In this document: in pieces, positions 2,265-22,548 of the stretch | Layout: every line of letters starts with the position of its first letter | Position numbering within the stretch: the stretch's first letter is position 1 | Assembly: GCA_024653325.1 (NCBI GenBank) | Contig: JANLFX010000004.1 | Span: forward strand, 6,628-70,627 | DNA length: 64,000 nt | Direction of reading: 5' to 3' | Source: Anaerolineae bacterium | Lineage (GTDB): Bacteria > Chloroflexota > Anaerolineae > JACIWR01 | The notes under the pieces: model-generated | What the model was told of the DNA's origin: nothing | The model's database searches: none | Seen by the model: the letters and a program-made list of their open reading frames with translations, nothing else | Program-made: the position numbers and the translations under genes

Positions 2265-3461
2265 ATGCTAACCGGGCATAATTTTGTTTATTTTGGACCA
2301 GGGCCGTGGTTGGGTTTGTGGCGCAACCGACACCACCTAATGAGCAGGTTTGCTCATGGTAATCAGGTGCTGTATGTAGAGCCGCCGCCATATCTCCGAC
2401 CCGTTGTACATCAACTATCACAAGGTTGGGAGGGCTGGCAGAGCCTGCGAAATCCATGCCTGAGCCAGGTGCAGGATAACCTGTACGTTTACCACAGCCC
2501 AGCCTACGCCCCAGTTAGTGGACGTCCGCCTTTGAGCACGATAACCCATGTCATACGCCAGGCCTTGCTCTTGCGGGCGATGCAGCGTCTGGGGATGGAA
2601 CAACCCATCATCTGGCTCTCGCAGCCAAAAATGGGAAGCCTGATCGGTCAATTCCATGAGCGGTTGACAATCTATCACGTGGTGGATGAGTACACCGCCT
2701 ACCACGGCGTAACGACGGAAATGGCTTCCTGGATTCGTCTCCAGGAAAAACAACTCATGGCCCGGGTAGATTTGGTGATTGTGGTCTCATCCACACTGTG
2801 GGAAGCCAAACGGCCCTACAACCCACATACCTATTGGGTACCCAACGGTGTGGACCTGGTGGCTTTCAACCGTGCGTTGACCGAGAAAACTCCTCCAGCA
2901 GACCTGAATGCTATCCCGGAACCGCGGCTTGTCTATGCCGGGCTAATTGGTGTGCGACTCGATTTGACTTTGCTGCTCGCTGTCGCCCGGCGACATCCAG
3001 ACTGGTCACTTGTCTTTATAGGACAGGTGGATGACCGAGGATGTGAGGATGAACTGGCCAATTTGCAATCTTTGCCCAATGTTCACTTTTTGGGCCTGAA
3101 GCCAGCCTCCGTCGTGCCCCGTTATTTACTGGCTTGCCAGGTATGTCTGCTGCCCTATCGTCGGAGCGAGGAGTCTCGGCACATAGACCCGATTAAGCTG
3201 TACGAGGGACTGGCTTCTGGGAAACCCATTGTATCTACTCCTATCCCGGCGGTGTTACCTTACGGCGATCTGATCTGGCTGGCTTCTGACGATAGTGAAT
3301 TCGAAGCGGCGGTACAAGAAGCCCTGGCGGAACGGGATGATAGCAGAGCGGCACAACGGCGGTCTTTGGCGGCGGAACACACCTGGGAAAAGAGAGTAGA
3401 GCAGATTTCGACCCTGATCCAGTCCCGCCTTCGTGATAATAAGCGGGTTAAGCAGGGGTGA
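2265..3461 (+). CDS. GT-B fold glycosyltransferase (family 1/4 domain)
   Basis: C-terminal motif ...YEGLASGKPIVSTPIP... characteristic of Glycos_transf_1. N-terminal region resembles the GT4 N-domain. Confidence 0.7.
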   Translation: MLTGHNFVYFGPGPWLGLWRNRHHLMSRFAHGNQVLYVEPPPYLRPVVHQLSQGWEGWQSLRNPCLSQVQDNLYVYHSPAYAPVSGRPPLSTITHVIRQALLLRAMQRLGMEQPIIWLSQPKMGSLIGQFHERLTIYHVVDEYTAYHGVTTEMASWIRLQEKQLMARVDLVIVVSSTLWEAKRPYNPHTYWVPNGVDLVAFNRALTEKTPPADLNAIPEPRLVYAGLIGVRLDLTLLLAVARRHPDWSLVFIGQVDDRGCEDELANLQSLPNVHFLGLKPASVVPRYLLACQVCLLPYRRSEESRHIDPIKLYEGLASGKPIVSTPIPAVLPYGDLIWLASDDSEFEAAVQEALAERDDSRAAQRRSLAAEHTWEKRVEQISTLIQSRLRDNKRVKQG

Positions 3462-3468
3462 GAAACCG

Positions 3469-4704
3469 ATGACCAATCGCAGCTATCGTGTCCTTTACGT
3501 GGAAAATGCAAACAGTGTGGGAGGATCCATTATCAGCGTTTATCGGCTGGTGCAGCAGTTGAACCGCCAGCACTATGAGCCGATCATCCTGTTCCATCGT
3601 CCCAATGGCTACGAGCCTCGCTTTCGCGCCTTGGGCATCGAGGTTATTGTACTGGACGGTAAGGAAACACCCCAGGCTCAAGCCGGTAGTGGTCATTCCC
3701 GCGACATCGCGGCCTGGCTCGGTCACTACAGCTCAACTCTGGCTCACACTTACCGCAGGCTGAAATCCATCTACTTGTTGGGAAGCCAAACCCTACCGGA
3801 GTCACGACGCATCTATCGCATCATCAAGGACCGCAGGATTGACCTTGTACATCTGAACAATCGGCTGAGCAGCAACCGCAGCGGAGCCCTGGCCGCGCGA
3901 TGGGCTCGCACGCCCTGTCTATGCCATGTTCGTGACTTCGACCATCTGACCTGGTTTGATCGTTGGCTAGTAAAAAGGGTAGACCATTTTGCTTTTATGT
4001 CGCGTGCCCTGGAACAGAGTCTGAAGGCTGCCGAACCCTCCCTTCGCGGGTCGGTCGTTTACGATGGTCTGGAGCTGGATAGATTTTTGACTTCACAAGA
4101 CAAGGCCAACTTTCGTCAAGAATTGGGACTGAGCAATGATGATTTTGTGGTGGGGAATGTGGGCCGGTTGGTGCCCTGGAAGGGGCAGGAGGTCTTCCTG
4201 CGCGCGCTGGCCCGCGTCGCGCCGCAGATCCGTAACCTCAAAGCACTGATTGTGGGCGACCCGGACCCGCCGGCAGAGACCGCCTATTTGAAACATTTGC
4301 AATCTCTGGTTCAGGAACTGGGCCTGTCGGATATTGTACGGTTCACGGGGTTTTATTCGGACATTCCCCGCCTTATGGCTTCGCTGGATGTGCTGGTGCA
4401 CAGCTCCTCGTCGCCGGAGCCTTTCGGCATCGTGGTGATCGAGGGCATGGCGGCGGGCAAACCGGTGATTGCTACCAGAGCCGGTGGGGTGCTGGACATC
4501 ATCGAAGATGGTGATAACGGCCTGCTGGTGCCCGTTGGAGACGACCAGAGTATGGCCGAGGCGATTTTGACTCTGGCTCGCTGTCCTGATCTGGCGGCTC
4601 GGCTGGGGACGAATGCACGGCAACGCGTAACAGCTTGTTTCACAGTGACTCAGTACGTCCAGACGGTGCAAACTATCTACCAGAGTTTACTGGAGGAGAG
4701 ATAG
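3469..4704 (+). CDS. Glycosyltransferase family 4
   Basis: EPFGIVVIEGMAAGKPVIATRAGGVLDIIEDGDNGLLV, the classic GT4 EX7E-region motif. Start chosen at MTNRSYRVLYVENANSVGGS. Confidence 0.85.
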   Translation: MTNRSYRVLYVENANSVGGSIISVYRLVQQLNRQHYEPIILFHRPNGYEPRFRALGIEVIVLDGKETPQAQAGSGHSRDIAAWLGHYSSTLAHTYRRLKSIYLLGSQTLPESRRIYRIIKDRRIDLVHLNNRLSSNRSGALAARWARTPCLCHVRDFDHLTWFDRWLVKRVDHFAFMSRALEQSLKAAEPSLRGSVVYDGLELDRFLTSQDKANFRQELGLSNDDFVVGNVGRLVPWKGQEVFLRALARVAPQIRNLKALIVGDPDPPAETAYLKHLQSLVQELGLSDIVRFTGFYSDIPRLMASLDVLVHSSSSPEPFGIVVIEGMAAGKPVIATRAGGVLDIIEDGDNGLLVPVGDDQSMAEAILTLARCPDLAARLGTNARQRVTACFTVTQYVQTVQTIYQSLLEER

Positions 4705-4840
4705 CGTACGATTTTGCCTGAAGGGTCTGGACAATGTCACTGTGTGCAGAGGGACAGGGCTGGGAGGTTCAGGAGGTATAGAACAGGGCGATGGAAGCCA
4801 ACATAGCCTCGGATCATAAAGACCTCAGGAGGGAAGAATC

Positions 4841-5872
4841 ATGAGTGTGGAAGAGTTTGTACAGTATATGCGTATTCTACTGAAGAGGTGGTGGCTGTTT
4901 CTGATCCTGTGCGGTACCACTTTAGGGGCTATCCTGTTTAGCTTCTATACAGCCCCTCCCCAGTACAGAGCCACTGTTCACTTTCTCGTAAACGCCCCCC
5001 CATCTGGGGATGTAACTCTTTACCCGGGCTTCGATCAGCCTACCCAGAGTCAGCAAATCGCGGCCACCCAGTCTCGTTTCATGGAGATATTGCAAAGTTC
5101 GACGGTGACCTGGCAAACTGTGAGAACCATCCAGGCCTCGATGGATGGCGATGAGCTCAAGCGGCGGACTGTGGTGGATAAACCAACGGATTCGGAATTC
5201 ATTCGCGTATCCGTGTTAGCCGATGAACCCCAGGAGGCAGCCGATTTAGCCAATGCACTGGTAGATACGGCCAAACAGTATTACGGTCAGATTTTGGCTA
5301 ACCCCTCGGCTTTGGCCCGCGAATTCATCTCCATGCAGGTAGAGGATGCTTTTCAGGAACTCCAGGCCGCCAAGCAGGCATTGGCGGATTTTAAGAAAAA
5401 GCATCAGATTGGAGATTTGCCGGCCGAAATCCAGGCCCAAAGAACCATTCTCTGGAATCTGATCCTGGAACACGACCAGGCCGTAGCCAACAAGCAAACC
5501 GATCAAGCGGCGGCTTACGATATACTTATCTCCCAACGCCAGGAAGAGCTCCAACGGCTGACCGCGCTAAGCGATGAGTATGAAGACTTGAACGACGCTA
5601 TCAAGAGAGCCGAAACCTATTACAAGTTCCTGCTGGATAAGGAGACCGAAGCCAAGCTGAAGGAGAATGAGATCCTCAACGCTGCTTTCATCCAGGTAAT
5701 CGAGCCAGCCCGTCCACCGCGGGAGCCTGTGTCACCTATCAATCTCAAAGTCCTTGCCCTCGGCAGCCTATCGAGCCTGATTGCCAGTATAGTGATCGCT
5801 TTTGCGCTTGAATACAAAGAGTCTCAGCAAACGCAAAAAACAAAGAAGCCAGTAGCGAGTTTTGCCTCATGA
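4841..5872 (+). CDS. Polysaccharide co-polymerase / chain-length determinant (Wzz-like, no kinase domain)
   Basis: N-terminal TM (WWLFLILCGTTLGAILF) plus a Wzz-type motif (PPQYRATVHFLV). Long coiled-coil middle and a C-terminal TM. GGAGGG ribosome-binding site upstream. Confidence 0.7.
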   Translation: MSVEEFVQYMRILLKRWWLFLILCGTTLGAILFSFYTAPPQYRATVHFLVNAPPSGDVTLYPGFDQPTQSQQIAATQSRFMEILQSSTVTWQTVRTIQASMDGDELKRRTVVDKPTDSEFIRVSVLADEPQEAADLANALVDTAKQYYGQILANPSALAREFISMQVEDAFQELQAAKQALADFKKKHQIGDLPAEIQAQRTILWNLILEHDQAVANKQTDQAAAYDILISQRQEELQRLTALSDEYEDLNDAIKRAETYYKFLLDKETEAKLKENEILNAAFIQVIEPARPPREPVSPINLKVLALGSLSSLIASIVIAFALEYKESQQTQKTKKPVASFAS

Positions 5873-5927
5873 CTCGCACATTCAGTGTAGTCAATCAATT
5901 AAAGACTCACGAACCGTAAGGACGTAT

Positions 5928-7403
5928 GTCATGAGAATGCTAACCTTGCCTGCCGCCTGGACACAATCCCGCTTGTTCTCCGGGATACGCTGGTGCTTCT
6001 ACGCCTTGGTTGCAGGAGTAGTGGGCTGGCAATTGGGCCGAATGCTGGCCTCGCCCTCCAGCGATCTCGTGGCTCCCCTGGTTTTCATGGGTGCCTGCAT
6101 CCTTATCACTCTAAACCGCCCATTAGAGGGACTTCTTCTCGCCCTGATTTTGCATCCTTTTATCAATTTCTTCTACCTAAATATTGACCTCGGGGCAGGC
6201 ATTCCTTCCATCAGCTTACTGAGGATGATTGTCGCCATCGTATTCGCACTTATCCTTGCCCGGGTGGCTACGGGGCAGTATGGCTCTTTACGTCTTACCT
6301 GGACTGACGTGTTCATGCTTTTAACCACATTAGGGCTGGGGATAGCCGCGATACGTGGCACCGCCGCCACAAAATATCTCCAGTGGCTGTTCGACAAGTT
6401 CATGACGCCTTACATGATCTACTATATCACCAAACGTCTGATCACCAATCGCACTACACTCCACCGAACTCTGTGGGCCACGATGATTATTGGCGCTTAT
6501 TGTGGTATCTATGGAATTTACACCCAGACAACAGGCAACATCCTTTTCGTAGAAGGGGAACTCACAGGGCCTCTCTGGTATAACGAGCATCTCCGTATTA
6601 TGAGGGGTCTGCTGGATTCACCTCACGTGTTCGGGCTTGTATTCTCGTTAGCGATACCTATAAATTTTTACTTGCTCATTAAGGCTTCCACACCGGGAAA
6701 AAAATTGTTACTGGGCTTGGCACTGGCCATTACCATGGGGGGGCTTTTCTTCACCTACAAACGCACAGCCTGGATAGCCACGATAGCCAGCTTCCTGGTC
6801 ATTACGTTCTTTTTCCCGCGCTTTAGGCGACTGTTTCTGGTCCTCCTCCTTTTGGCTACTGTTATCATCGTACTGTATTCGGATCAGATCAGCGATAGCG
6901 CAGTGGTCACTCAACGACTGGGCGAGAAGACAAACACGCTCAACGGACGGCTCGAGCTGTGGGAAACTGCCTGGCGGGACTGGAAACGGGCTCCCTACTT
7001 TGGTTATGGCCTGGGAGGGTTCTTTGCCAAATCCTCGCTGAAAGCTATTGAAAGTCACTACCTGTGGCTTCTGGTAGATGCCGGTCTTGTGGGATTTGTG
7101 CCTTACGCTTTGGTCTTCATACTTATTTTCAAGACCAGCGTCCGGCTCTTTCGAGCCAGAGCGCCAGCCATCTTCGCAGAACCGGACCTGGTGGCAATGT
7201 TCTGGGGCACGTTTGCCGCCTATTTGGTCAGCCTTTCCACCGTGGTCATGAACCATGAGCTTCCGCACGATCTGCTCTTTCTGCTGGCTGGCGCAATAGT
7301 TGGCTCCCAGGAAGTTTTCTTAAACCGACAGGACGACGACCGCTCCCAAATAGAGCCCCGTATACAACTCAGACATGCCAATAAGGGGGAAAGCACGTTA
7401 TGA
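5928..7403 (+). CDS. O-antigen ligase/polymerase-like (Wzy_C domain) polytopic membrane protein
   Basis: About 10-12 predicted TM helices with a large loop (…WETAWRDWKRAPYFGYGLGGF…) typical of O-antigen ligase family. Start is ambiguous between 5862 and 5928. Confidence 0.65.
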   Translation, partial: VMRMLTLPAAWTQSRLFSGIRWCFYALVAGVVGWQLGRMLASPSSDLVAPLVFMGACILITLNRPLEGLLLALILHPFINFFYLNIDLGAGIPSISLLRMIVAIVFALILARVATGQYGSLRLTWTDVFMLLTTLGLGIAAIRGTAATKYLQWLFDKFMTPYMIYYITKRLITNRTTLHRTLWATMIIGAYCGIYGIYTQTTGNILFVEGELTGPLWYNEHLRIMRGLLDSPHVFGLVFSLAIPINFYLLIKASTPGKKLLLGLALAITMGGLFFTYKRTAWIATIASFLVITFFFPRFRRLFLVLLLLATVIIVLYSDQISDSAVVTQRLGEKTNTLNGRLELWETAWRDWKRAPYFGYGLGGFFAKSSLKAIESHYLWLLVDAGLVGFVPYALVFILIFKTSVRLFRARAPAIFAEPDLVAMFWGTFAAYLVSLSTVVMNHELPHDLLFLLAGAIVGSQEVFLNRQDDDRSQIEPRIQLRHANKGESTL

Positions 7404-8605
7404 GAGTAGCTATTCTTGGGGACTATCCTCTGGAACCAGATCGCATCGCTGGCGGCGTGGAAGCCGTCATCAGCTATCTCGTCGCCGAACTGAGAAAATT
7501 CACAGATCTTGAACTTCACGTGGTGACATTTCATGAGGATGTGCGACAGCGATATGTATGTCAACAGGAAAGCAATCTCACGGTGCACTATCTGCCGCCT
7601 GCCTACCGCTTTGCCAACGTGACTTTCTTTGTGATCAACAAGTTCCTATTGCTTCGGGAGCTGGCGGACATCAAACCGGATTTGATCCATGCTCACGTCG
7701 CGGGCACTTACGCTGAGGTGGCCCATATGACAGGACTTCCCGCTGTCTTAACCTTGCATGGTATTAGATACCGCAGCCAATGGTTACAGAAAGGATGGGT
7801 GAACCGGCTGGTGCGACGGCCGTTGATTGCCCGCGAGGAAAGGGCCAGCGTCAGAAAGGCCCGTCATATCATCGCTATTAATCCCTGTATCCAGGAGGAG
7901 TTCGGTCCCCTCATCCGGGCGACTGTCTACCCTATTGAAAATCCGGTTCCCGATAAGTTCTTCAACCTGGAGAGGCGGGAGAAGGGGGCCCGGATACTGT
8001 ATGTGGGTCGCATAACCGAGGGCAAAGGGATCGCGCTTTTGATCCAGGCGATGGTCTCTGTGAGGGACCGAGTGCCGGATGCCCAGCTTCATCTGGCGGG
8101 CGAGGCGAGCAGCACCTCTTATCAGCGGTCTTTGCAGGATCTGGTGGAAGGCCTGGGGTTGGAGGAGAAGGTGCATTTCCTGGGCCTTCTGGATGAGGAG
8201 CATTTGCTTGAGGCATATGAGCAATGCGCATTGGTGGTCCTGCCCTCTTATCATGAAACGGCCCCTATGGCAATTCAGCAGGCTATGGCCGCGGGGAAAC
8301 CGGTGGTGGCCACAAGGGTGGGAGGGGTGCCTTATATGGTGTTGCAAGAGGAGACGGGTCTGCTGGTTGAGTATGGAGACGTCCTCGGGCTGGCGGAAGC
8401 AATGGTTCGCCTCCTGTACGATGACGCACTGCGGGCGCGATTGGGAGAAAGGGCCAGGGAGGAAGCAGTTCGGCGATTCCGTGCAGCAGTTGTGGCCTGC
8501 CGAACTTATGAGGTGTATCGAAAGCTCTTCGAGGAGTTTCAGGGAGGGAAGCTGTGGCGGGGATATTCGGCATTTATGACCCGGAAATGGCTCGGGAGCA
8601 CCTGA
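7400..8605 (+). CDS. Glycosyltransferase family 4
   Basis: ETAPMAIQQAMAAGKPVVATRVGGVPYMVLQEETGLLVEYGD, a GT4 signature. Start overlaps the upstream stop (ATGA). Confidence 0.85.
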   Translation: MRVAILGDYPLEPDRIAGGVEAVISYLVAELRKFTDLELHVVTFHEDVRQRYVCQQESNLTVHYLPPAYRFANVTFFVINKFLLLRELADIKPDLIHAHVAGTYAEVAHMTGLPAVLTLHGIRYRSQWLQKGWVNRLVRRPLIAREERASVRKARHIIAINPCIQEEFGPLIRATVYPIENPVPDKFFNLERREKGARILYVGRITEGKGIALLIQAMVSVRDRVPDAQLHLAGEASSTSYQRSLQDLVEGLGLEEKVHFLGLLDEEHLLEAYEQCALVVLPSYHETAPMAIQQAMAAGKPVVATRVGGVPYMVLQEETGLLVEYGDVLGLAEAMVRLLYDDALRARLGERAREEAVRRFRAAVVACRTYEVYRKLFEEFQGGKLWRGYSAFMTRKWLGST

Positions 8606-10443
8606 TAGACCTGGCCCTGCGTATGCAGTCCGTTATCACCCATCAATCGTGGTACCAGGGCCGAACGGTCGCACAACCGCCGCTGGCGGCCGGACGGGTG
8701 GGCCTGGGGATTGTCAACCCACAGCCGCAGCCGGCCAGCAACGAGGATGAGACGGTCCTGGTGTGGATGGATGGCGAGATTTACGACTTCCAGCGACAGG
8801 AGCTTTCCCGCCGGTTGCAGGCGGCCGGTCACAGGCTTGAGGGTAAGGGCGATGCAGAGCTACTGGCTCACCTATATGAGGATGAGGGTGAGGATTGTTT
8901 TTACAACCTTGATGGTACGTTCGCTGTGGCGATTTTCGACAACCATCTGAACAAGTTGCTGATCGGCGTGGATCGTGATGCCTCGCGGCAATTGTATTTC
9001 TATACCTGCGACAACCGATTCCTGTTTGCCTCGGAAGTTAAGGCCATCCTGCAGGACCATCGTGTGCCGCGCCGGTTGGATGAACAGGGCCTGGTCGAGT
9101 TCTTCACCTTCCGTCATCCCCTCGGTGAGCGTACGCTGATCAGGGATGTGCGTTTCCTGCCTGCTGGCTGTCTGGTCGTCTTCTGTAATGGCCAGGCTCA
9201 GGTCAGGCGCTACTGGGAACCGGTTGTGGTTGATGATTTTTCTCGATCGCGAGAAGAGTACCTGGCCGAGCTGGAGGCGGGATTGCGATGGGCGCTGGAA
9301 CGTCAGTTGTATGACGACAGGCCCATTGGTGAGATGTTGAGTGGGGGCCTGGATTCCCGCTTGTTGGCTGGCATGATACCGCCCCAGCGGATGGAGCACT
9401 TCCATACCTTCAGTCGAGGCCCACTGGAATGCTGGGATGTCAGATTTGGTACCCTGGTTGCCAGGGCAATCGGCAGCCAGCATCATATCTTTGAGCTCAA
9501 GCCGGATTTTCTCCCCCCCCTGGCCAGACAGGGCGTGTGGTTGACCGACGGGCTGATGACCGTGATGGATATCTATGAGTTGAGTTCCATTGAGCTGGTC
9601 AAGTCCTGTGTTGACGTTGTCTTCCTGGGTCTCGGCCGAGGTTGTGGCATTTTGGGCGGTGTGGAATTGAGCAAAAGGCTGCTGGAGGCCCGAAATCTGG
9701 ACGAAGCGGCGCAGGAGTTTTTCGCTCGACAGGGGACTTATATTCCCCAGGATATGCAGGCCCGGTTGCTCTCTGGCCAGCTCTATAAGAATACACAGGG
9801 CGCAGCCTTTGAGACCTTCCGTCAGATGCTGGAGAGCTGTCAGGCCGACACTCCCGCCGGTCAGGTTGAGGTCTTCTGTATCCAGTGCCGCTGGCCGCGG
9901 TCGGCAAACTATGGCCCTTTTCTGGCCCGCACACAGGTGGAGACCCGCCACCCCTATAATGATAATGACTTCTCTGATCTGGCGTGTCGGGTGCCCGCCC
10001 GCTGGCGGCTGAAGCGGCAGATGGAGATAGCCCTTCTCAAGCGCGTCCGGCCTGACCTGGCCCGGATCCCCTATGACTATACGGGCTTGCCGGCCAGCGT
10101 CAGCACCCCCACTGTCATGTTCATTCAGCGTGGGCTTTATTATATGCGCCGCCGGGCAAGTTATCTGACCCGGGGGTGGATCCCGGCCGGCACGGAACGG
10201 GAACGGGCTAACTATCCGGTCTGGTTTCGCACCAGCCTACGAAAATGGCTGGAAGGTATCCTGCTGGATCGGCGCACGCTGGGTCGCGGTTATCTAAACG
10301 AAGCCTTTCTCAGACAGATGATCCGCGATCACATGAATGGTCGTCGAGACTATTCTATCCAGTTCGGGCTTTTGCTGACCTTTGAGTTGTGGAACCGCCT
10401 GTTCATAGACGGGGAGCCTGTGACCACCGATGCGCCGGGTTAA
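8554..10443 (+). CDS. Asparagine synthetase family (AsnB-like) amidotransferase with degenerate glutaminase active site
   Basis: N-terminal domain aligns to class-II GATase (…GEIYD…, …GDAEL…). Synthetase PP-loop SGGLDS is present (EMLSGGLDSRLL). N-terminus reads M-A-G-IFGI, not M-C-G-I. Confidence 0.8.
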   Translation: MAGIFGIYDPEMAREHLIDLALRMQSVITHQSWYQGRTVAQPPLAAGRVGLGIVNPQPQPASNEDETVLVWMDGEIYDFQRQELSRRLQAAGHRLEGKGDAELLAHLYEDEGEDCFYNLDGTFAVAIFDNHLNKLLIGVDRDASRQLYFYTCDNRFLFASEVKAILQDHRVPRRLDEQGLVEFFTFRHPLGERTLIRDVRFLPAGCLVVFCNGQAQVRRYWEPVVVDDFSRSREEYLAELEAGLRWALERQLYDDRPIGEMLSGGLDSRLLAGMIPPQRMEHFHTFSRGPLECWDVRFGTLVARAIGSQHHIFELKPDFLPPLARQGVWLTDGLMTVMDIYELSSIELVKSCVDVVFLGLGRGCGILGGVELSKRLLEARNLDEAAQEFFARQGTYIPQDMQARLLSGQLYKNTQGAAFETFRQMLESCQADTPAGQVEVFCIQCRWPRSANYGPFLARTQVETRHPYNDNDFSDLACRVPARWRLKRQMEIALLKRVRPDLARIPYDYTGLPASVSTPTVMFIQRGLYYMRRRASYLTRGWIPAGTERERANYPVWFRTSLRKWLEGILLDRRTLGRGYLNEAFLRQMIRDHMNGRRDYSIQFGLLLTFELWNRLFIDGEPVTTDAPG

Positions 10444-12772
10444 TGTCCGATACCCCATCTGGCGGATTCAGGCCGTCCTCGCCAAAGGCCCAGAGCACCT
10501 GCTGAGGCTGGGTCAATGGTATGCAGGGCAGGCTGCTCAGCAAGCCTTCAGGTCCTGGCGTCCTTCGGCAGTGGGCGAAAGGGCATTCCTCGCTCAGCTT
10601 TCCATGCCCTCCGCCCGGCAGGCTAGGCGAGACGGCGATCCTGTGGCATTGAAGCGGGCGGTGGCTCACCACTTCCGGAAGCGTGCCCGGCCTGTGTTCT
10701 TTTTCGACCCGAATGACATCCAGGCTCTTGTCGTCAACGTGCAGGAAGCGGATAAAAAACGCACCATCGCTCAGGCCGATGAGATCTGTGATCTTGTTTT
10801 CCGCTTCCGTGGGGAGCCGCCTGTAGCGTTCGATGGGCCGGTGGATTGGTTCTACTGCCCACGGGGGAACCGCGATTGGACATGGGAGCTGAATCGCCAT
10901 AGCTACTTTGTGACCCTGGGGCGGGCTTATGCTTATACCGGGGACGATCGTTACGTTCACACTTTCCGCGATCTGTTGCTCGATTGGCTCAAGCGTAACC
11001 CGGTGGGACTCGACCAGCCCAATTGGGCCAGTGTGCTCGAGGTCGCTTACCGCATCAATGCCTGGATATGGGCTTACCATCACTTTCGGGTGGCTCCCGG
11101 TCTCGACGACGATGCTCTGCTTGCCTGTCTGCGTGGCCTGTGGATTCACGGCCGCTATCTGGCGGCCAACCTGGAGTATCACGTGCCCAACAATCACCTG
11201 CTGCTGGAAAGCAAAGCCTTGGCGATGTGCGGCCTGTTGTTCCCCGAGTTCAGGGATGCAGGCGAGTGGCTCGAACGCGGGCTTTCTATCCTGTGGCAGC
11301 AACTCCGCCGGCAGGTTGGTCCGGATGGTGTGCACAGGGAACAGGCAACCATGTACCACCGGATGATCACCAGCGAATTGCTTGAGCTGCTCGTGCTGTT
11401 GGACAACAACGGCATCGTCGTGCCTCCAGGCATGAAGGACATTTTCAAGCGATTGCTCGATTTTGAACGTGCTTTCACAGGGCCCGATGGTCAGATTCCT
11501 CTGATCGGCGACTCGAGCCTCAGCGATAGCTATATTCGCTTCTCCGCCCTGTCCGGCGGAGCCGTTTTCCTGGGTTGTGCCGGTGGTGCGCCCGCCGCCA
11601 TTGACGAGGCGACCCTGTGGCTTCTGGGTCTGGAGCGGGTTGCACGACCGTCGCCGTCCGGCGAAGTTTTGGCCCCTCCGGCTTCGCAGGCTTTCCCTGA
11701 GGGTGGCTATTTCATCATGCGGGATGGCGATGGCCGGGAAGCCCCTTATCTGATTTTTGACTGCGGGCCTTTCAGCTATCGCCCGGCACCGGGCCACGGC
11801 CATGCGGATGCCCTGAGTTTTGAATTGCATGCCTGCGGGCGACCGCTGATCGTCGATCCAGGGGTATACACCTACCACCTGGGAAGGCAATGGCGCAACT
11901 ACTTTCGGAGCACCCCGGCTCACAACACGGCCGTCGTGGACGGAGAGGACCAGTCGTTGTTGCTGGGTACGTGGCATATCCTCCGACCGGCACGGGTTAC
12001 GCTCCACGAGTGGGTGACCACCCGGCAATTTGACTTTGTGGACGGTTCCCACGACGGATATACACGCCTTCGTCAGCCCATCATTCATCGGCGGCAGATC
12101 TTCTTCGCCAAACCTGAATACTGGGTCATCTTCGACCTTCTTAATGGGCAGGGCCAGCACCGATTCGATCTCTACTTTCACCTGATGCCCGATGCACGGG
12201 TTTCCCTCGACCCGCTTTCGGGCGCGGCTCGCATCGAGTACAGCAACGGCGTGGGCCTTCTGGTCTGCCCGGCCATCTATGCCGGTTCCCAGGCTGAGGT
12301 TATCGCCGGCAGTCTCGACCCAATCCAGGGCTGGGTTTCCCGGTATTCAGGCGAAAAGACTCCCGCGCCAACCTTGCGATACGGGAAGGTCATAGATGCC
12401 CCGACTATGTTCGTCACCGTTCTTTATCCCTCTGCCCGGATGGATCGGGCCGCTGTCAGGGTGTCGCCACTGGTTGTGACCGACGGGGAGAGGGCTTTCG
12501 ACGAGGTAACAGTGACCGGGCTGAGAGTTGAAGTGGGCCCATATGTGGACTATCTGGTGGTGGATCGTCGTGAACAGCCGGGCCGCAAGGCCTTCGGCCG
12601 CTACATCACCGACGGGAGACTCGTTTATCTACGCCGGTGTACCTCAGGCAGTGGGCCGATCAAGGCTGTTATCCATCGAGGTAGCGAGCTCAGGCTGAGC
12701 AGCGAACCATGGATCGTGCGTGCTGAAGGGCCTGTATCCCGTGAACCTACGGAGTATAACGGCTGGAGTTAA
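10430..12772 (+). CDS. Heparinase II/III-like protein (alginate-lyase-like N-domain + Hepar_II_III C-domain; PL12/PL15/PL17-type fold), no signal peptide
   Basis: Motif HGHADALSFELHACGRPLIVDPGVYTYH is typical of Hepar_II_III family. The architecture fits at 780 aa. The N-terminus lacks a signal peptide. Confidence 0.7.
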   Translation: MRRVNVRYPIWRIQAVLAKGPEHLLRLGQWYAGQAAQQAFRSWRPSAVGERAFLAQLSMPSARQARRDGDPVALKRAVAHHFRKRARPVFFFDPNDIQALVVNVQEADKKRTIAQADEICDLVFRFRGEPPVAFDGPVDWFYCPRGNRDWTWELNRHSYFVTLGRAYAYTGDDRYVHTFRDLLLDWLKRNPVGLDQPNWASVLEVAYRINAWIWAYHHFRVAPGLDDDALLACLRGLWIHGRYLAANLEYHVPNNHLLLESKALAMCGLLFPEFRDAGEWLERGLSILWQQLRRQVGPDGVHREQATMYHRMITSELLELLVLLDNNGIVVPPGMKDIFKRLLDFERAFTGPDGQIPLIGDSSLSDSYIRFSALSGGAVFLGCAGGAPAAIDEATLWLLGLERVARPSPSGEVLAPPASQAFPEGGYFIMRDGDGREAPYLIFDCGPFSYRPAPGHGHADALSFELHACGRPLIVDPGVYTYHLGRQWRNYFRSTPAHNTAVVDGEDQSLLLGTWHILRPARVTLHEWVTTRQFDFVDGSHDGYTRLRQPIIHRRQIFFAKPEYWVIFDLLNGQGQHRFDLYFHLMPDARVSLDPLSGAARIEYSNGVGLLVCPAIYAGSQAEVIAGSLDPIQGWVSRYSGEKTPAPTLRYGKVIDAPTMFVTVLYPSARMDRAAVRVSPLVVTDGERAFDEVTVTGLRVEVGPYVDYLVVDRREQPGRKAFGRYITDGRLVYLRRCTSGSGPIKAVIHRGSELRLSSEPWIVRAEGPVSREPTEYNGWS

Positions 12773-12777
12773 TTAAG

Positions 12778-14070
12778 ATGCCGATCATCGCTTACGTCTC
12801 GCAACAGTTTCCCTGCCTTACTATGACCTTCATTTACCGCGAGGTCCTGGCTCTCCGTCGTTATGGCCTGACTATCCGCCCGATTTCGACGTGGCGCCCT
12901 CCGGCAGGCGTGATGTCCGAAGAGGCAGTAGAGCTGATCGGTGAAACCTTCTACATCTTTCCATTGCCCTGGCTAAGGCTGCTGGGCAATCACCTGCACT
13001 ACTTACTGACACGACCGGGGCGCTATCTGGGGACGTTGGGGCGACTTGTGCTCTTTAACCGTGAGCCGCTCAGGCACCGCTTACGCCTGCTGGTCCATTT
13101 TATCTACGCCGTCCGGGCCGCTGCTGAGATAGAGCGCTGCCAGGCTCAGCATATTCACGCCGACTTTGCTTTGAACGCTGCCACGGTCGCTATGGTGGCT
13201 TCGTGGCTTACCGGCAGACCTTTCAGCTTTACTGCCCACGCCGCCGATATCTTTGTTGACCCCATCCTGCTCCGGGAGAAGATCGCAGCCGCTTCTTTCG
13301 TAGTGTCCATCTCGGAATATAACAAGCGACACTTGGTCAGTATAGCGGGTGATAACGGAGTAGCCGGTAAGATTCATTTAGTTCACTATGGACTGAACAT
13401 AGATCAGTTCACTCCCAATCCGAACCGAAAACCGAACGCTGTCCCGGTGCTCCTGACTGTCGGGCGGTTGGTTGAGAAAAAGGGCCTCCAGTATCTGGTG
13501 AAAGCCTGCCGCATTCTGGTCGAGCAGGGGTATGAGTTCGAGTGTCTGATCGTTGGTCAGGGGCCTGAAGAGAAGATGCTGCGCCAGCTCATTCGGGAGT
13601 ACGGCCTGGGCGAGCGGGTTCATCTGCTTGGGGCGATGCCTCAGGAACGGGTGCGGGAATTGTTCCGGCGGGCCGATCTCTTCGTCCTCCCGTGTGTGGT
13701 GGCCAGCAACGGCGATCGGGACGGCATCCCCGTGGTCCTGATCGAAGCGATGGCGATGGGGTTGCCTGTGGTCTCGACCTCTCTTTCGGGCATACCGGAG
13801 CTGATCGAAAACGGGGTGAGCGGCTGGGTGGTCTCCCCTCATGACGAGGAAGAGCTGGCCGGGGCGATGGCTAAGTTGTTGCGGGATCCTCACCAGCGGG
13901 CGAGGATGGGCGCTGTCGGGCGACGTAAGGTTCTGGAGGAGTTCAACATAGAGCGGAGTGCAGCTCAACTGTGTGCCCTGTTCAACGGGTCAACGACCGG
14001 ACGATGCGAAGCGGTAGCGATGGCAGTAGAGGATGGGTTGGAATGTTCTTCAAGAAATGGTTCTGTGTAG
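12778..14070 (+). CDS. Glycosyltransferase family 4
   Basis: …VVLIEAMAMGLPVVSTSLSGIPELIENGVSGWVV…, a GT4 motif. Confidence 0.8.
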   Translation: MPIIAYVSQQFPCLTMTFIYREVLALRRYGLTIRPISTWRPPAGVMSEEAVELIGETFYIFPLPWLRLLGNHLHYLLTRPGRYLGTLGRLVLFNREPLRHRLRLLVHFIYAVRAAAEIERCQAQHIHADFALNAATVAMVASWLTGRPFSFTAHAADIFVDPILLREKIAAASFVVSISEYNKRHLVSIAGDNGVAGKIHLVHYGLNIDQFTPNPNRKPNAVPVLLTVGRLVEKKGLQYLVKACRILVEQGYEFECLIVGQGPEEKMLRQLIREYGLGERVHLLGAMPQERVRELFRRADLFVLPCVVASNGDRDGIPVVLIEAMAMGLPVVSTSLSGIPELIENGVSGWVVSPHDEEELAGAMAKLLRDPHQRARMGAVGRRKVLEEFNIERSAAQLCALFNGSTTGRCEAVAMAVEDGLECSSRNGSV

Positions 14071-15122
14071 GGAAGGCAATAGCACAGGACGGGCTTGTCC
14101 GGTGGGCAATTTGCATTATGTTTGCAGGTTTTCTTTTGTTGTCGTTTGCTTTCAAAGGCCTGGGTGCGAAATTGCCTGACCCCAGCGGGCTGGGAGGTCT
14201 GAAGGGCGATGATTCGCCGACTCCCTCCGGCAATTATCCGATGTTCCTGCCGCTTGTAATGCGCAGTGAAACATGGCGGCCCTTTTCCGACAACAGCCCC
14301 TGGAATCTTCCCATCCCTGCCAATCCGGCAATAGATCCCAATTCCGGTGCGATGATCGCCCATCTCCAGCAATCGTCGAGTCCTGTGTTCTGGATCAATA
14401 TCTACACCTATACTGTGCCTGTCTGGATGGCCGACAGCTCTACCCCTGAATACAAAGTAACCTGCACGCAGGGGTACTGTGGACCCGACTTTGACCACGT
14501 CCCCATTCCCGACGGAGCTGTCCCTGATCCGGGCAGTGATGCTCACATGCTCATCCTGGACTTGGGAAGGCATACGTCGTGGGATATGTGGCTGGCGCAT
14601 CAGGCCCAGGACGGCTCCTGGACGGCCGGGTTTGGCACGACGTTCGATCTCAATGGAGACGGGGTGAAACCCTACGGGCAAGGAAGCGCTCGCGGCTCGG
14701 GCTTTCCGTTGGCAGCAGGGCTGATCTATGCAGACGAAGTTAGAGCAGGACACATCCGTCACGCGTTGGTTATGGCCTACGACTGGCCCCGTAACTGCCT
14801 GGTATATCCGGCCAGCACCAACTGTGGCCTGAGCTCCGCTTCTGATGCCATCCCGATAGGTGCCCGTTTGCAATTAGACCCATCGCTGAACCTGGACACA
14901 CTTGGATTGAGCCCGGGGGGCAAAGTGGTGGCCCGGGCCATGCAGGAATATGGGGTGTACGTAGGTGACAACAGTTATGGCCTTAGCCTCTACGCCGAAT
15001 CCTTTTATGGAAAACCAGAGGACCCCTGGAAAGAGCTTCTCAAAGAAAATGACCTCGTTAAGCTTCCGATCAACAAATTGCGGGTGCTCAAATTGGGTGA
15101 ATTAAGATGCGATCCCCATTAG
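14043..15122 (+). CDS. Hypothetical secreted protein (signal peptide or signal anchor, then …FLPLVMRSETWRP… motif)
   Basis: Start at MFFKKW with GAGG 8 nt upstream, and a hydrophobic h-region (AICIMFAGFLLLSFAF). No family recognised. Alternative start at 13971. Confidence 0.4.
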   Translation: MFFKKWFCVGKAIAQDGLVRWAICIMFAGFLLLSFAFKGLGAKLPDPSGLGGLKGDDSPTPSGNYPMFLPLVMRSETWRPFSDNSPWNLPIPANPAIDPNSGAMIAHLQQSSSPVFWINIYTYTVPVWMADSSTPEYKVTCTQGYCGPDFDHVPIPDGAVPDPGSDAHMLILDLGRHTSWDMWLAHQAQDGSWTAGFGTTFDLNGDGVKPYGQGSARGSGFPLAAGLIYADEVRAGHIRHALVMAYDWPRNCLVYPASTNCGLSSASDAIPIGARLQLDPSLNLDTLGLSPGGKVVARAMQEYGVYVGDNSYGLSLYAESFYGKPEDPWKELLKENDLVKLPINKLRVLKLGELRCDPH

Positions 15123-17503
15123 TCTCAGACCGATGGCCGCTCTACGGGAGGAGGCCTCACCCTATCAATCAAAGAAAGCAGAAGTATGGAGAAACGATAA
15201 AGGCCGGTTTAGCCATCCCATTCATCATTAGCCTTATCACCATAGTCAGCGTACTGGCCTGCGGGACGACGCGCTGGATAGCTTCGCCTGAATCACCAGT
15301 GAAGGCTCCTGCTACCGCCAGCCCGTACATGTGGACCCGCCACACGGTGGGCGGCGGTGGCGGACAGACTGGCATTGCTATAGATCCGATGAATACCGAA
15401 GTCGTTTACGTGACCACCGACAATGGCGGGATCATCAAGTCAACCGACGGTGGGGAAACCTGGTTCTCAATCAACAATAACATCGGCAACCGCCTGCTTG
15501 CTGATGTGGAGCTCGATCCCCTTGATCCCAACGTCATATACGTAGCAGCGCAGGTCTATGCCAAAAGCCCCAGTTGGAGCGACGATCCCACGAATGGGGA
15601 ACTCTACCGTTCCCGAGATGGAGGACAAAGCTGGGAGATAGTGCACGCCGAGGGCATGGGCCCAGGAGACGGACGGTGTTTTGGGATCGTGCAATGGCCG
15701 AGCACGAGAAGTATCCTCATCCCCTACGATCCAGCAGATCCAGACCGTTACGATGCTGATAGCGACCATCTCACGGATATGATTTACATTGGGGGATGGG
15801 ATGCGGATGAGGCAAGCGCTGACAAACGAGCAGGCATCTGGAAAAGCACCGATGAGGGGGTTACCTTCACCCAGATTGCCTTGAATGATAAAAACATCTG
15901 GGTACTGCGTCAAGACCCCGATGATCCGGAAACTTTGTATGCCGGAACACATGGAGACGGCTTATTCGTCAGTCGAGATGGGGGGATTAACTGGGAGGAC
16001 TGGTGCGACCGGATCCCCATACCAATGATCAGCGACATCGCCATTGTCCCGAATACCGATACTTTGTATGTGGCTACCAACGGATTATTTAGCCAGTATG
16101 GCGGTGACAAATATCGAGACAAACGGGGGATCTACAAGAGTACCGATGGAGGGGCAAGCTTTTTCCCTGTCAATTCGGGGTTGGAAAAGACCAGTTTGAA
16201 TTTCGAAGTATTACTCTTAGATCGAACCGATTCCTCAGGAAAGACGCTTTACACCGGCCCCTGGTGGGGAAACAGACAAGGCATCTACAAGACTACCGAC
16301 GGAGGAGTTCGTTGGACGCAGATGAAACACGAGGTTGTGCGGAACCCCTATTGGTTCTCCCGTTTCGATAATCTGTGGACGCTGGAACAGGCTGACGATG
16401 GCACAATGTTTGCAGGCACTTGGCGGGGTATCTACCGTTATAATCCAACGAGCCAGCGTTGGGAAATTAAAGTAAACGGATTGGGCAATGTAAGCGTACA
16501 GAGCATCGCTTTTGAACCGGGCAACAGTTCGACCATCTATCTCGGCATCCTGGATAGTACCCCCTGGAAGAGTGTGGATAAAGGATTGACGTGGTCGAAC
16601 ATCGGCAGGGGGTTCACCACGGCGGATGGAGCACAAGAGGCTGGTGCTTCTGATTTTGCCATCTCAGAGACCAATCCCCAAATCATATACGCGACGGGTA
16701 TAGGCTCCAGTGGCCGTTATCTCAGCGCGGTCAACAAATCTCAAGATGGGGGGGCCCACTGGCGCCGGATCACCAATGGTTTGCCTGCCACTACATCTGA
16801 GGATCCCCAGTGGCAGGCCACCGCCATCGTAGTCAGTGCACACGATCCTGACGTCGCCTATGTCGCTTTACAGATGAAATCAGGGGGCGGGCGCATCTAC
16901 AAGACAATCAATGGTGGCAGGCAATGGAATGAAGTGTACGCGTTCCCTGAGAACCCTACAGACCTAGCCATCTCCTCGACCGATCCGGAGACAATTGTGT
17001 GTGCCACTGAACGGGGAGTCATCCACGTTGGGAAAGAAGGTGGTAGCCAGTGGCAATCGCACGATCTCGGTCTGGGGTTGCTCTACGCTGTTGATGTGTT
17101 CCCCACCGATCCGGATAGAATTTTGGTCGGCGCGAATATCGCCGGGGCTTTTTTAACCACCGACGGGGGAGATTCCTGGCAGCACATTTTTGATGCTGAC
17201 AAGCTCCAGCAGTTCATCGGTGATCTTGCCCTGAGCGCATTCGCCCGAGAACGTTACTGGCCAACAACTACGGCAGTCAAGTTCGATCCCCATGATCCCA
17301 ATACTCTGTACATAGGCCACAACCCAAGTATATGGATGGGGATAGGCGTGCTGAAATCCACTGATGGCGGTCAGAGTTGGGTCTCGTTAACGGATGCGGG
17401 ATTTCAAATGCGCTCAGTCAGCGATTTCGATCTGGATCCACTGACCGGTGATTTGGCAGTGGGAACATGGGAGGTCTACTACTATCACGCAGATGCGAAG
17501 TGA
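15107..17503 (+). CDS. BNR/Asp-box repeat beta-propeller protein (sialidase/xyloglucanase-like fold), N-terminal signal anchor
   Basis: About 12 Asp-box motifs (S-x-D-x-G-x-T-W), for example STDGGETWFSI, SRDGGQSWEIV, STDGGASFFPV, TTDGGVRWTQM, SQDGGAHWRRI, STDGGQSWVSL. One TM helix near the N-terminus. Confidence 0.8.
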   Translation: MRSPLVSDRWPLYGRRPHPINQRKQKYGETIKAGLAIPFIISLITIVSVLACGTTRWIASPESPVKAPATASPYMWTRHTVGGGGGQTGIAIDPMNTEVVYVTTDNGGIIKSTDGGETWFSINNNIGNRLLADVELDPLDPNVIYVAAQVYAKSPSWSDDPTNGELYRSRDGGQSWEIVHAEGMGPGDGRCFGIVQWPSTRSILIPYDPADPDRYDADSDHLTDMIYIGGWDADEASADKRAGIWKSTDEGVTFTQIALNDKNIWVLRQDPDDPETLYAGTHGDGLFVSRDGGINWEDWCDRIPIPMISDIAIVPNTDTLYVATNGLFSQYGGDKYRDKRGIYKSTDGGASFFPVNSGLEKTSLNFEVLLLDRTDSSGKTLYTGPWWGNRQGIYKTTDGGVRWTQMKHEVVRNPYWFSRFDNLWTLEQADDGTMFAGTWRGIYRYNPTSQRWEIKVNGLGNVSVQSIAFEPGNSSTIYLGILDSTPWKSVDKGLTWSNIGRGFTTADGAQEAGASDFAISETNPQIIYATGIGSSGRYLSAVNKSQDGGAHWRRITNGLPATTSEDPQWQATAIVVSAHDPDVAYVALQMKSGGGRIYKTINGGRQWNEVYAFPENPTDLAISSTDPETIVCATERGVIHVGKEGGSQWQSHDLGLGLLYAVDVFPTDPDRILVGANIAGAFLTTDGGDSWQHIFDADKLQQFIGDLALSAFARERYWPTTTAVKFDPHDPNTLYIGHNPSIWMGIGVLKSTDGGQSWVSLTDAGFQMRSVSDFDLDPLTGDLAVGTWEVYYYHADAK

Positions 17504-17527
17504 GGATAATCTCAAAGGATTGCGCCA

Positions 17528-18565
17528 ATGACCACCATTGCCAGCAGAAGTAAAGTGCCGGGGGTAGAACACAATCAGACATTAAGCCCAGTTCGTCCAG
17601 CTCTGTTTTTGGCCTGGTCCCCACCCAGCCACACCCGGCGCAGCGAGTTGATGGCTCGCAGAATGGGTATTCCTCTACGGCGGGTTCATGTCTTAAAGAT
17701 GAAGCCCTACCTGGCCCCGCTGCGCTACGTCGTTCAGGCATTTTTGACCTTGATAATATTGTTTCGTGAACGACCTAGAGCGGTGTTTGTCCAGAACCCA
17801 CCCATCTTTGCACCGTTGCTCGCCTGGATTTACTGTGCCCTCACTGGAAGCGGCCTGATTATTGACTCCCACACCGACGCACTGCAAAGCCGAATCTGGA
17901 AGTGGTCATTACCCCTACACCGCTTTCTGTCGCGCCGTGCCCTGACCACTATCGTCACCAACGATTATTTGAGCCAAACCGTCGCCCAATGGGGAGCCCG
18001 CACCCAAATCATTGTTGATGTTCCTAGTGATCTGCCCACGGGCCGACCATACCCTACCGGTTATCCTTTCAACATCGCCATGATCAGTTCCTTCGCACCG
18101 GACGAGCCTCTGGATGAGGTGATCGAGGTCGCTTGCAGCCTGCCCGAGGTTGGCTTTTACGTCACTGGCGATCCGGTACAGGGTTTCAAACGGTTGCCTG
18201 CCAGCCTGCCTCCCAACCTGCGACTGACCGGCTTTCTGCCTGATGACGAGTACTACGGCCTGCTGCGTTCGGTGCAAGCAGTGATGGCTCTGACAACTGA
18301 AGATCACACTATGCAGCGTGGCGCCTGTGAGGCCGTCTGGCTGAGCCAGCCGATTATCACCTCCGACTGGCCGCTGTTGCGGCAGGCTTTCCACAAAGGA
18401 ACTATCCACGTGGACAACACCGTCGAGGGCATCCGAAGCGGTGTGCTGCAAATGCGCGCCAGGTATCCGCAATTAGCCAGTGAGATTTTGCTATTGCAAG
18501 AGGAGCGAAGACGGCAGTGGCAAGCCATCGAGCAAAAGTTAGATACCCTGATCGGGCAAACCTGA
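17528..18565 (+). CDS. Putative glycosyltransferase-like protein (divergent GT-B C-domain)
   Basis: …QRGACEAVWLSQPIITSD… resembles the E-x7-E / G-x-P region of GT4/GT1. Otherwise weak. Start uncertain. Confidence 0.4.
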   Translation: MTTIASRSKVPGVEHNQTLSPVRPALFLAWSPPSHTRRSELMARRMGIPLRRVHVLKMKPYLAPLRYVVQAFLTLIILFRERPRAVFVQNPPIFAPLLAWIYCALTGSGLIIDSHTDALQSRIWKWSLPLHRFLSRRALTTIVTNDYLSQTVAQWGARTQIIVDVPSDLPTGRPYPTGYPFNIAMISSFAPDEPLDEVIEVACSLPEVGFYVTGDPVQGFKRLPASLPPNLRLTGFLPDDEYYGLLRSVQAVMALTTEDHTMQRGACEAVWLSQPIITSDWPLLRQAFHKGTIHVDNTVEGIRSGVLQMRARYPQLASEILLLQEERRRQWQAIEQKLDTLIGQT

Positions 18566-18590
18566 AACCCAGGAAAAGGACTGAACGTTC

Positions 18591-19886: not shown

Positions 19887-19899
19887 TGGACAGAGGGCG

Positions 19900-22519: not shown

Positions 22520-22548
22520 GAATAATTGGTAGCCAAGAGATTCAAACT

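Follow-up and report, generated by a model that had tools for sequence, protein, structure and literature searches.

The window analysed here is the whole of a 64,000-nucleotide stretch of DNA from an Anaerolineae bacterium (contig JANLFX010000004.1), and the gene in question, which lies within a glycan-assembly locus, encodes a homologue of asparagine synthetase B (AsnB). The product of this gene is referred to as the window protein hereafter. It was found to belong to a large family of AsnB-like proteins in which the N-terminal cysteine of the class II amidotransferases is lost and an arginine directly follows the PP-loop. The reading that we prefer, with a probability of roughly 0.55, is that the window protein is a glutamine-independent, ATP-using enzyme that forms an amide on the glycan of the locus; here we infer the use of ATP, the carboxylate and the nucleophile. 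The positions of the features are collected in Table 1.

The start of the gene and the codon for residue 2

The open reading frame (ORF) begins with the codons GTG GCG GGG ATA TTC GGC ATT, which are read as M-A-G-I-F-G-I, and a GGGAGGG sequence ends 5 nucleotides (nt) ahead of the GTG. Codon 2 (Ala, GCG) occupies the place of Cys1 in the canonical enzymes. An in-frame TGA is located 17 codons upstream of the GTG, which is the first start codon after it, and the intervening peptide (GVSKALRGVSGREA) includes neither a Cys nor an alternative start codon. The first-pass annotation of this DNA had stated that codon 2 is GCG, not TGY, and that no in-frame Cys exists back to the upstream stop, and the sequence bears out both statements. 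It had also considered that codon 2 might be misread, or that the true start might lie elsewhere with an intact MCG N-terminus. Neither was found. In five orthologous loci (related loci are denoted by L numbers), the aligned start is ATG, and codon 2 is CCG in L002, GCA in L003, CCC in L005, CCA in L006 and GCA in L009. Since the orthologues carry an ATG and an Ala or Pro codon at the aligned position, both a sequencing error and a misplaced start are excluded. The protein encoded in L009 is 91% identical to the window protein, and all full-length close homologues (49–84% identity) have the N-terminus M-[A/P]-G. The database also holds a protein of 100% identity from an Anaerolineae metagenome-assembled genome (MAG), which is labelled 'asparagine synthetase B [Anaerolineae bacterium]'.

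Loss of the glutaminase site

In the N-terminal domain, Pfam matches to GATase_7 and GATase_6 cover residues 57–167. The catalytic positions were mapped on E. coli asnB (NC_000913) with MAFFT and with profile–profile alignment by HHalign, and in addition by a HMMER alignment to PDB 1CT9. Cys1 is replaced by Ala2 and Arg30 by Gln, and 'GPD' is changed to 'SWY'. Arg49 corresponds to Gly50 by MAFFT and HHalign, while the HMMER pairwise alignment places Arg48, two residues upstream, there, so that this position is ambiguous. Gly75, Glu76 and Asp98 are retained. The first-pass annotation had reported an Asn-to-Asp change at the oxyanion position. An Asp (D73) is indeed present there; the residue it cited was, however, Asn79, the last N of 'VNGEIYN', while the oxyanion residue is Asn74, the first N of this motif. 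Both are Asp in the window protein.

In a set of 64 Cys-containing relatives, conservation reaches 100% at each of the positions Arg30, Arg49, Asn74, Asp98, Asp351 and Glu352; in every Cys-less group, including the group with Ser at residue 2, these positions are lost or relaxed. The features that define a class II (Ntn) amidotransferase, namely the Cys1 nucleophile, the oxyanion Asn74 and the glutamine-binding Arg49, are missing from the window protein. The suggestion that the protein is glutaminase-dead is strongly supported, and the loss is wider than was claimed, because it extends over Cys1, Arg30, Arg49 and Asn74. With these residues gone, the protein would be unable to hydrolyse glutamine, and its N-terminal domain would be kept as a structural 'pseudo-glutaminase'.

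The synthetase domain

The C-terminal domain matches Asn_synthase (PF00733) at residues 240–498 with 98 bits against a cut-off of 21. As the first-pass annotation had noted, the PP-loop SGGLDS is present, at residues 263–268. The SGGxDS motif, the match to the domain model and the two-domain AsnB fold together place the protein in the N-type ATP pyrophosphatase superfamily. Its helical C-terminal extension is common to the long Cys-containing AsnB-like relatives that were recovered. Across the family, the PP-loop core is near-invariant (D238 invariant, G235 in 139 and G236 in 140 of 140 members), and Gly347 is conserved in 132 of the 140; the pairwise identity within the family is only about 25–30%, yet these positions hardly vary.

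A different picture is seen in the segment corresponding to E. coli S346-G-E-G-S-D-E352, where only Gly347 is kept: Ser346 is replaced by Leu, Glu348 by Leu360, Asp351 by Cys364 and Glu352 by Gly365. As an equivalent of E. coli Lys449, Arg551 was suggested by MAFFT L-INS-i and was not adopted, as MAFFT auto and HHalign give no reliable match.

A large family without the cysteine

In a word-indexed protein search, some 35 proteins appeared to form a clade on their own, the next matches being MCGI proteins at no more than 33% identity, and repeating the search with a diverse family alignment returned the same candidates and added none. Residue 2 is Ala or Pro in all members of this clade. An exhaustive profile search, in turn, recovered 79,349 representatives at E ≤ 1e-3, corresponding to the whole AsnB superfamily; the best 150 of them are full-length matches of 282–1081 bits. 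In the 148 new ones among these top representatives, residue 2 is Pro in 82, Ser in 27, Ala in 16, Gly in 6, Thr in 4 and Cys in 2. An odd residue (Leu, Val, Lys, Tyr or Arg) occurs there in about 11 of the 148, and the other non-Cys residues are small ones compatible with removal of the Met. None of the residues at this position in the Cys-less family is consistently a nucleophile.

The sequence after the PP-loop divides the proteins sharply. All of the 148 strict matches carry 'SGG.DSR', and 10 further Cys-less proteins carry minor variants such as TGGLDSR or SGGLDAR, with changes of the TGG or D[AG]R kind. The Arg directly after the PP-loop is therefore found in 158 of 158 Cys-less proteins as against 0 of 69 Cys-containing ones, in which Ser, Thr or Ala occurs and Arg never does. 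We define the family here by the M-[P/S/A/G/T]-G N-terminus, the Arg after the PP-loop, the loss of Arg30, Arg49 and Asn74, and a C-terminal 'FELWxRxFxD' helix. The window protein carries all of these marks (MAG, SGGLDSR, the three losses and FELWNRLFID). When clustered at 50% identity, the top matches of the family alone already give at least about 145 clusters. The implication that the window protein is a one-off variant was consequently wrong: it is by the loss of the Cys that a large family is defined.

Ser at residue 2 (MSGVFG...) characterizes about 18% of the representatives (P0160, P0189, P0196, P0212 and about 23 others). Ser can serve as an Ntn nucleophile, and Ser or Thr at residue 2 was considered as an alternative nucleophile that would explain the family in general. 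This explanation was rejected: the Ser group lacks Asn74 (mostly Ala, Ser or Thr there) and Arg49, and therefore does not look like a working glutaminase.

The members are named 'asparagine synthase (glutamine-hydrolysing)', 'asparagine synthase-related protein' or 'hypothetical protein' in their sources, and no NCBIfam model specific for the Cys-less family was found. The close relatives of the window protein come from Anaerolineae/Chloroflexota MAGs. A scan of genome contigs with the single protein gave one close relative (L009), the other matches being canonical MCGI proteins. A Cys-less sub-lineage with N-termini of the form 'LPGIAGI.DLEGK' and apparent TTG starts was also observed in metagenome loci L047-L049, L053-L059, L061-L063, L081 and L086.

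Constraint and predicted fold

Compared with the 91%-identical orthologue, the ratio of nonsynonymous to synonymous substitution rates (dN/dS) is 0.13 for the N-terminal domain and 0.09 for the C-terminal domain. Both domains are under purifying selection, and the protein is maintained, not decaying. In a 28-member alignment of the clade, the mean column identity is 69%, and the clade-invariant polar residues of the C-terminal domain include H284, D295, H311, T331, R449, E463, R465, D470 and R551. The AlphaFold2 model of the window protein has two domains (pLDDT 94.9, pTM 0.94). A Foldseek search with this model gave TsnB9, E. coli AsnB, human asparagine synthetase (ASNS), beta-lactam synthetase and CarA as the top PDB fold matches, with TM-scores of 0.74 to 7YLZ and 0.61 to 1CT9.

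The glycan locus and the neighbouring genes

Table 1. Features of the window and the corresponding neighbour genes in related loci
Feature	Position	Strand	Basis
AsnB-like ORF, 629 amino acids (aa), GTG start	8554..10443	+	ORF call; Pfam GATase_7 + Asn_synthase
Shine-Dalgarno GGGAGGG (8542-8548), GTG (8554-8556), codon 2 GCG = Ala (8557-8559)	8542..8559	+	Sequence
N-terminal Ntn-fold domain, residues 1 to ~200, pseudo-glutaminase	8554..9153	+	MAFFT, HHalign, clade alignment
D73-G74-E75-I76-Y77-D78 ('WMDGEIYD'); D73 at Asn74 position, D78 at Asn79 position	8770..8787	+	HMMER vs 1CT9, MAFFT, HHalign
C-terminal PP-loop (N-type ATP pyrophosphatase) synthetase-like domain with long helical C-terminal extension	9154..10443	+	Pfam, alignments, HHalign
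PP-loop S263-G-G-L-D-S268, then Arg269 (signature 'SGGLDSR')	9340..9360	+	Family alignments
L358-G-L-G-R-G-C-G365, degenerate counterpart of E. coli S346–E352	9625..9648	+	HHalign
Co-directional Wzy-type glycan-assembly locus	2265..24206	+	ORF list, Pfam, NCBIfam
Upstream GT4 glycosyltransferase, 52-nt overlap with AsnB-like start (8554-8605)	7400..8605	+	Pfam
PL12 heparinase-III-like gene, 780 aa, 14-nt overlap with AsnB-like gene (10430-10443)	10430..12772	+	Pfam, PDB match
NDP-sugar 6-dehydrogenase, UDP-glucose or UDP-ManNAc dehydrogenase-like	20864..22519	+	NCBIfam
PL12-like genes directly downstream in relatives	L002 9926-12286; L003 9905-12190; L005 10024-12333; L009 11877-14210; L023 5297-7639; L028 6814-9420; L029 2734-5070		

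The genes of the locus follow one another in the order glycosyltransferase (GT), GT4, Wzz-like, Wzy/O-antigen-ligase-like, GT4, AsnB-like, PL12-like, GT4, unknown, BNR, GT4-like, polysaccharide deacetylase, GT4, dehydrogenase, FemAB-like and GNAT. The order Wzy, GT4, AsnB-like, heparinase-like, GT4 is kept in relatives of 59–73% identity (L002, L003, L005, L023 and L026), and the adjacency of the GT4 and AsnB-like genes is kept in L002, L003, L005, L006, L022, L023 and L026. Both overlaps of the AsnB-like gene, of 52 nt with the GT4 gene and of 14 nt with the heparinase-like gene, are kept in L009 (10001-10052 and 11877-11890). In more distant orthologues, the GT4 gene ends just ahead of the AsnB-like start.

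The PL12-like neighbour matches heparinase III (4MMH) with an E-value of 2e-33. The catalytic residues of that enzyme are Asn240, Tyr294 and His424 (PMC12088678), which align to N255 (11192-11194), Y309 (11354-11356) and H458 (11801-11803) of the neighbour, and all three are kept in 8 of 8 orthologous neighbours. The adjacency of the PL12-like and AsnB-like genes extends to relatives of 39% identity (L029). By inspection of its sequence, the neighbour has no hydrophobic N-terminal signal peptide, and it is apparently cytoplasmic. Lyases and uronate C5-epimerases share a PL12-like fold and mechanism (PMC8006597), and the degradative-type lyase fold in this biosynthesis operon could have a C5-epimerase-like or a trimming role. 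More distant Cys-less members have no PL12 neighbour and usually lie beside GT4, GT2, dehydrogenase or Gfo/Idh genes. Tandem or nearby pairs of Cys-less AsnB-like genes were also seen in single glycan loci (L070 751-4681, L073 4501-8282, L071 9989-12660, L028 2752-4644 and 9438-11222); the second copy in L028 carries the motif 'SGGHDSR'.

The dehydrogenase deserves separate mention, because the first-pass annotation had placed the AsnB-like gene next to an AlgD-type GDP-mannose dehydrogenase. The dehydrogenase gene follows the AsnB-like gene only after 10.4 kb and seven intervening ORFs. Among the NCBIfam models, it is matched best by those for UDP-glucose 6-dehydrogenases (AglM and TuaD types) and for UDP-ManNAc dehydrogenases, and no GDP-mannose dehydrogenase model is among the matches listed for it, so that the link to GDP-ManA is unsupported. 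An enrichment of dehydrogenases near the family members was not seen: they occur within ±10 kb in about 8 of 80 metagenome loci, many of which are short. In the listed form of the dehydrogenase ORF, an N-terminal extension of 114 residues reaches 221 nt into the GT4 gene ahead of it (19861-21084); since the Pfam domain begins at residue 115, the true start is probably near 21200.

Several other genes of the locus were observed. They include the O-antigen-ligase-like gene (5862-7403), the polysaccharide deacetylase gene (18591-19886), the FemAB-like (Acetyltransf_6) gene (22510-23562) and the GNAT gene (23559-24206). The ligase-like, deacetylase and FemAB-like products gave weak matches, far below cut-off, to the XrtA/PEP-CTERM models TIGR03097, TIGR03006 and TIGR03019; the GNAT product was not in that scan. 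An ORF of 383 aa (13971-15122, + strand) has no Pfam or NCBIfam match and is conserved in the related locus L026 (phmmer, 376 bits). At the 5′ edge of the locus (9-2255, + strand), a single protein is encoded in which an S9 peptidase/esterase-like domain is joined to DUF7507 repeats, and this protein is conserved in three relatives, including L002 (1-1616) and L006 (1-1562).

Proposed function and alternatives

According to the preferred reading, the window protein would bind ATP and adenylate a carboxylate of the locus glycan or of a glycan precursor, for which a uronic acid is the obvious candidate. The adenylate would then be attacked by a nucleophile that glutamine does not supply, such as free ammonia, an amino acid or other amine, or the substrate's own amino group, in analogy to other Cys-less AsnB relatives (beta-lactam synthetase, CarA and the lasso-peptide cyclases). 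A uronic acid may reasonably be supposed as the substrate, because the locus has an NDP-sugar 6-dehydrogenase and a neighbour of the PL12 type, which acts at C5 of uronates. Any cooperation of the window protein with this neighbour is something that we infer.

Several observations weigh against this reading. One concerns the adenylate site: Ser346, which contacts the ribose, is Leu or Phe across the clade; the position of Glu348 is hydrophobic in the clade; Asp351, a Cys in the window protein, is kept by no more than about half of the family; and no reliably alignable conserved counterpart of the essential Lys449 was obtained with MAFFT auto or HHalign. Another is that the sub-lineage with the 'LPGIAGI.DLEGK' N-termini adjoins rplM (ribosomal protein L13) and an M48 peptidase gene, as found by Pfam in L047 and L061 and by inspection in L054 and L081. 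Given these housekeeping genes beside it, the family is not exclusively glycan-associated, and it may also have a non-glycan role. The last is that the dehydrogenase lies 10 kb off and that such genes are rare near the relatives; the link to uronate is therefore locus-specific and weak.

In human ASNS, the aspartate part of the intermediate is bound by Glu364, Asp367 and Glu368, while its phosphate is contacted by Lys466 (PMC6748925). These residues are equivalent to Glu348, Asp351, Glu352 and Lys449 of E. coli AsnB. Judged by this aspartate pocket and Lys449, which are not conserved, the window protein is certainly not an asparagine synthetase. The first-pass annotation had called it adenylation-competent, which remains plausible and is partly supported: the near-invariance of the PP-loop and Gly347 speaks for it, while the lack of conservation at Ser346, Glu348, Asp351, Glu352 and Lys449 speaks against it. 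Because these adenylate-site residues are not conserved, the site must have been remodelled if it carries out adenylation at all. The invariant Arg269 may replace the missing Lys449 as a putative phosphate contact.

The same non-conserved residues, together with the complete loss of the glutaminase site, could instead mean that both sites are dead and that the window protein is a non-catalytic scaffold or regulatory subunit of glycan assembly, perhaps one that serves the GT4 and PL12-like proteins encoded on either side. The tight coupling of the genes through the 52-nt and 14-nt overlaps kept in L009 would fit such a role. Pure scaffolds, however, normally lose their nucleotide loops, while in this family the PP-loop core is near-invariant and the next residue is Arg in all 158 Cys-less proteins in spite of the low overall identity. 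The many clade-invariant polar residues of the C-terminal domain and its dN/dS of 0.09 likewise argue against a scaffold, and we regard a pseudoenzyme as rather unlikely.

The preferred reading, an amide-forming enzyme, can also be extended. The whole Cys-less, Arg-bearing family might be an unrecognised class of glycan-modifying adenylating enzymes that join sugar carboxylates to amino acids, amines or intramolecular amino groups, not to ammonia, and that in the Anaerolineae clade are coupled to C5 epimerisation or elimination by the cytoplasmic PL12-like protein. In this full form, the extension is a bold one that we think has little chance of being right. If true, it would explain how uronic acids of the amino-acid-amidated or lactam type arise, for which, to our knowledge, few biosynthetic enzymes have been identified.

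A related alternative assigns the main chemistry to the pair of proteins: the AsnB-like protein would activate a uronate by adenylation or amidation, and its coupled cytoplasmic PL12-like partner would take the C5 proton, with epimerisation or 4,5-elimination as a biosynthetic step. The persistence of the gene pair down to 39% identity, the conserved 14-nt overlap, the intact Asn/Tyr/His in 8 of 8 loci, the lack of a visible signal peptide and the fold and mechanism common to lyases and uronate C5-epimerases (PMC8006597) are all consistent with it. Nevertheless, the proposal is speculative, a PL12 neighbour is missing beside most of the Cys-less members, and the PL12 enzymes neutralise the carboxylate by their own Asn, which makes adenylation unnecessary. 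It is accordingly considered improbable. We know of no precedent for adenylation-assisted C5 chemistry.

Finally, the idea that the window protein is an ordinary glutamine-dependent amidotransferase of the AsnB/WbpS type, and that its Cys1 has merely been missed through a misread base, a misplaced start or cleavage of a propeptide, which agrees with the database names 'asparagine synthetase B' and 'asparagine synthase (glutamine-hydrolysing)', is refuted by the stop 17 codons upstream with its Cys-free interval, by the Ala or Pro codons in five independent orthologous DNAs, by the absence of the Cys from more than 140 family representatives, by the additional loss of Asn74, Arg49 and Arg30 and by scores below all NCBIfam equivalog cut-offs, and it has practically no chance of being correct.

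Significance

Since Cys-less AsnB homologues are known elsewhere (beta-lactam synthetase, CarA and the lasso cyclases), the loss is unsurprising in kind. What appears to be new is a large, mainly glycan-locus family with a clean signature, in which loss of the Cys covaries with gain of the Arg, and, in Anaerolineae, its pairing with an intact cytoplasmic PL12 homologue. No paper was found that describes AsnB homologues without the Cys in glycan loci, nor any on an AsnB/heparinase gene pair, which is weak evidence because most subscription journals were outside the coverage. Three consequences can be pointed out. One is that the name 'asparagine synthase (glutamine-hydrolysing)' cannot be correct, because the family lacks the nucleophile, the oxyanion Asn and the aspartate pocket; the simple signature M-P/S/A-G plus SGGLDSR would allow the family an annotation model of its own. 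Another is that many uncultured bacteria would seem to use an ATP-dependent step, as yet unassigned, when they build their surface glycans. The strict covariation of Cys1 loss and Arg gain offers a concrete lead on the rebuilding of the active site. The last is that the heparinase-III homologue, which is catalytically intact and apparently cytoplasmic, is conserved as a partner gene and constitutes a second unexplained feature.

Comparison with known systems

The window protein resembles E. coli AsnB and human ASNS in the two-domain fold (Foldseek probability 1.00), in the combination of GATase_7 and Asn_synthase, and in the retention of SGGLDS, Gly75, Glu76 and Asp98. The chain of 1CT9, the engineered C1A mutant of E. 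coli AsnB, begins with ASIFGVFD and thus has at position 1 the Ala that the window protein has naturally. The differences are that the window protein lacks Cys1, Arg30, Arg49, Asn74 and the conserved Glu348, Asp351, Glu352 and Lys449, and that it has the extra Arg after the PP-loop and the long C-terminal helical extension. It scores below the cut-offs of TIGR01536 (195.4 bits; cut-off 267.1) and of the AsnB model NF006949 (122.5 bits; cut-off 499). Among 61 family members, the best E-value against class II asparagine-synthase models is 4.4e-72, which is estimated to be still below the cut-off.

The closest proteins outside the family are the XrtA/PEP-CTERM exopolysaccharide-locus amidotransferases (TIGR03108) and the other long Cys-containing AsnB-like relatives (25–33% identity), which have the C-terminal extension in common and likewise lie beside GT4 genes. 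These proteins differ in that all start with MCGI, with Arg30, Arg49, Asn74, Asp351 and Glu352 kept at 100%. Against TIGR03108 itself, the window protein reaches 183.9 bits, below the cut-off of 816.9, and its best stretch covers residues 1–318 only. In glycan loci, the WbpS/WbtH-type proteins are AsnB homologues of O-antigen clusters that are proposed to amidate uronic acids, and the first-pass annotation had drawn its analogy to the WbpS type. In Bordetella, wbmC/I/Z are assigned to the family of glutamine-dependent amidotransferases (PMC2615507); unlike such glutamine-dependent kin, the window protein would be unable to use glutamine.

The best PDB match in both sequence (E-value 1e-18) and structure (TM-score 0.74) is the hydroxyamidotransferase TsnB9 (7YLZ), which shares about 19% identity in an alignment that starts from residue 57 and so leaves the N-terminus outside the comparison. 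TsnB9 differs in having 'SGGLDSS', with Ser after the PP-loop, and in belonging to a natural-product pathway. The lasso-peptide cyclases (NF033535) and the macrolactam cyclases of the albusnodin/ikarugamycin type are also AsnB homologues, and they form ATP-dependent amide bonds without glutamine. All of the 61 family members match NF033535 weakly, the window protein with 111.2 bits, below the cut-off of 525. However, no precursor-peptide or leader-peptidase genes were seen among the neighbours in the window, which are glycosyltransferase genes.

Beta-lactam synthetase and carbapenam synthetase (CarA) share the AsnB fold (TM-scores of 0.52–0.55 to the model of the window protein). Their N-terminal domain also lacks the Cys nucleophile, and they keep a catalytic Lys (Lys443). 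They differ from the window protein in serving antibiotic pathways, not glycan loci, and in this Lys, which has no conserved counterpart in the window protein; with phmmer, the window protein gave no significant sequence match to either. In the N-type ATP pyrophosphatases, an acid is adenylated and then joined to ammonia, a part that is taken in the beta-lactam synthetases by an intramolecular amine: there, the PP-loop domain adenylates a carboxylate, and an amine borne by the substrate closes the amide without ammonia (PMC6594144).

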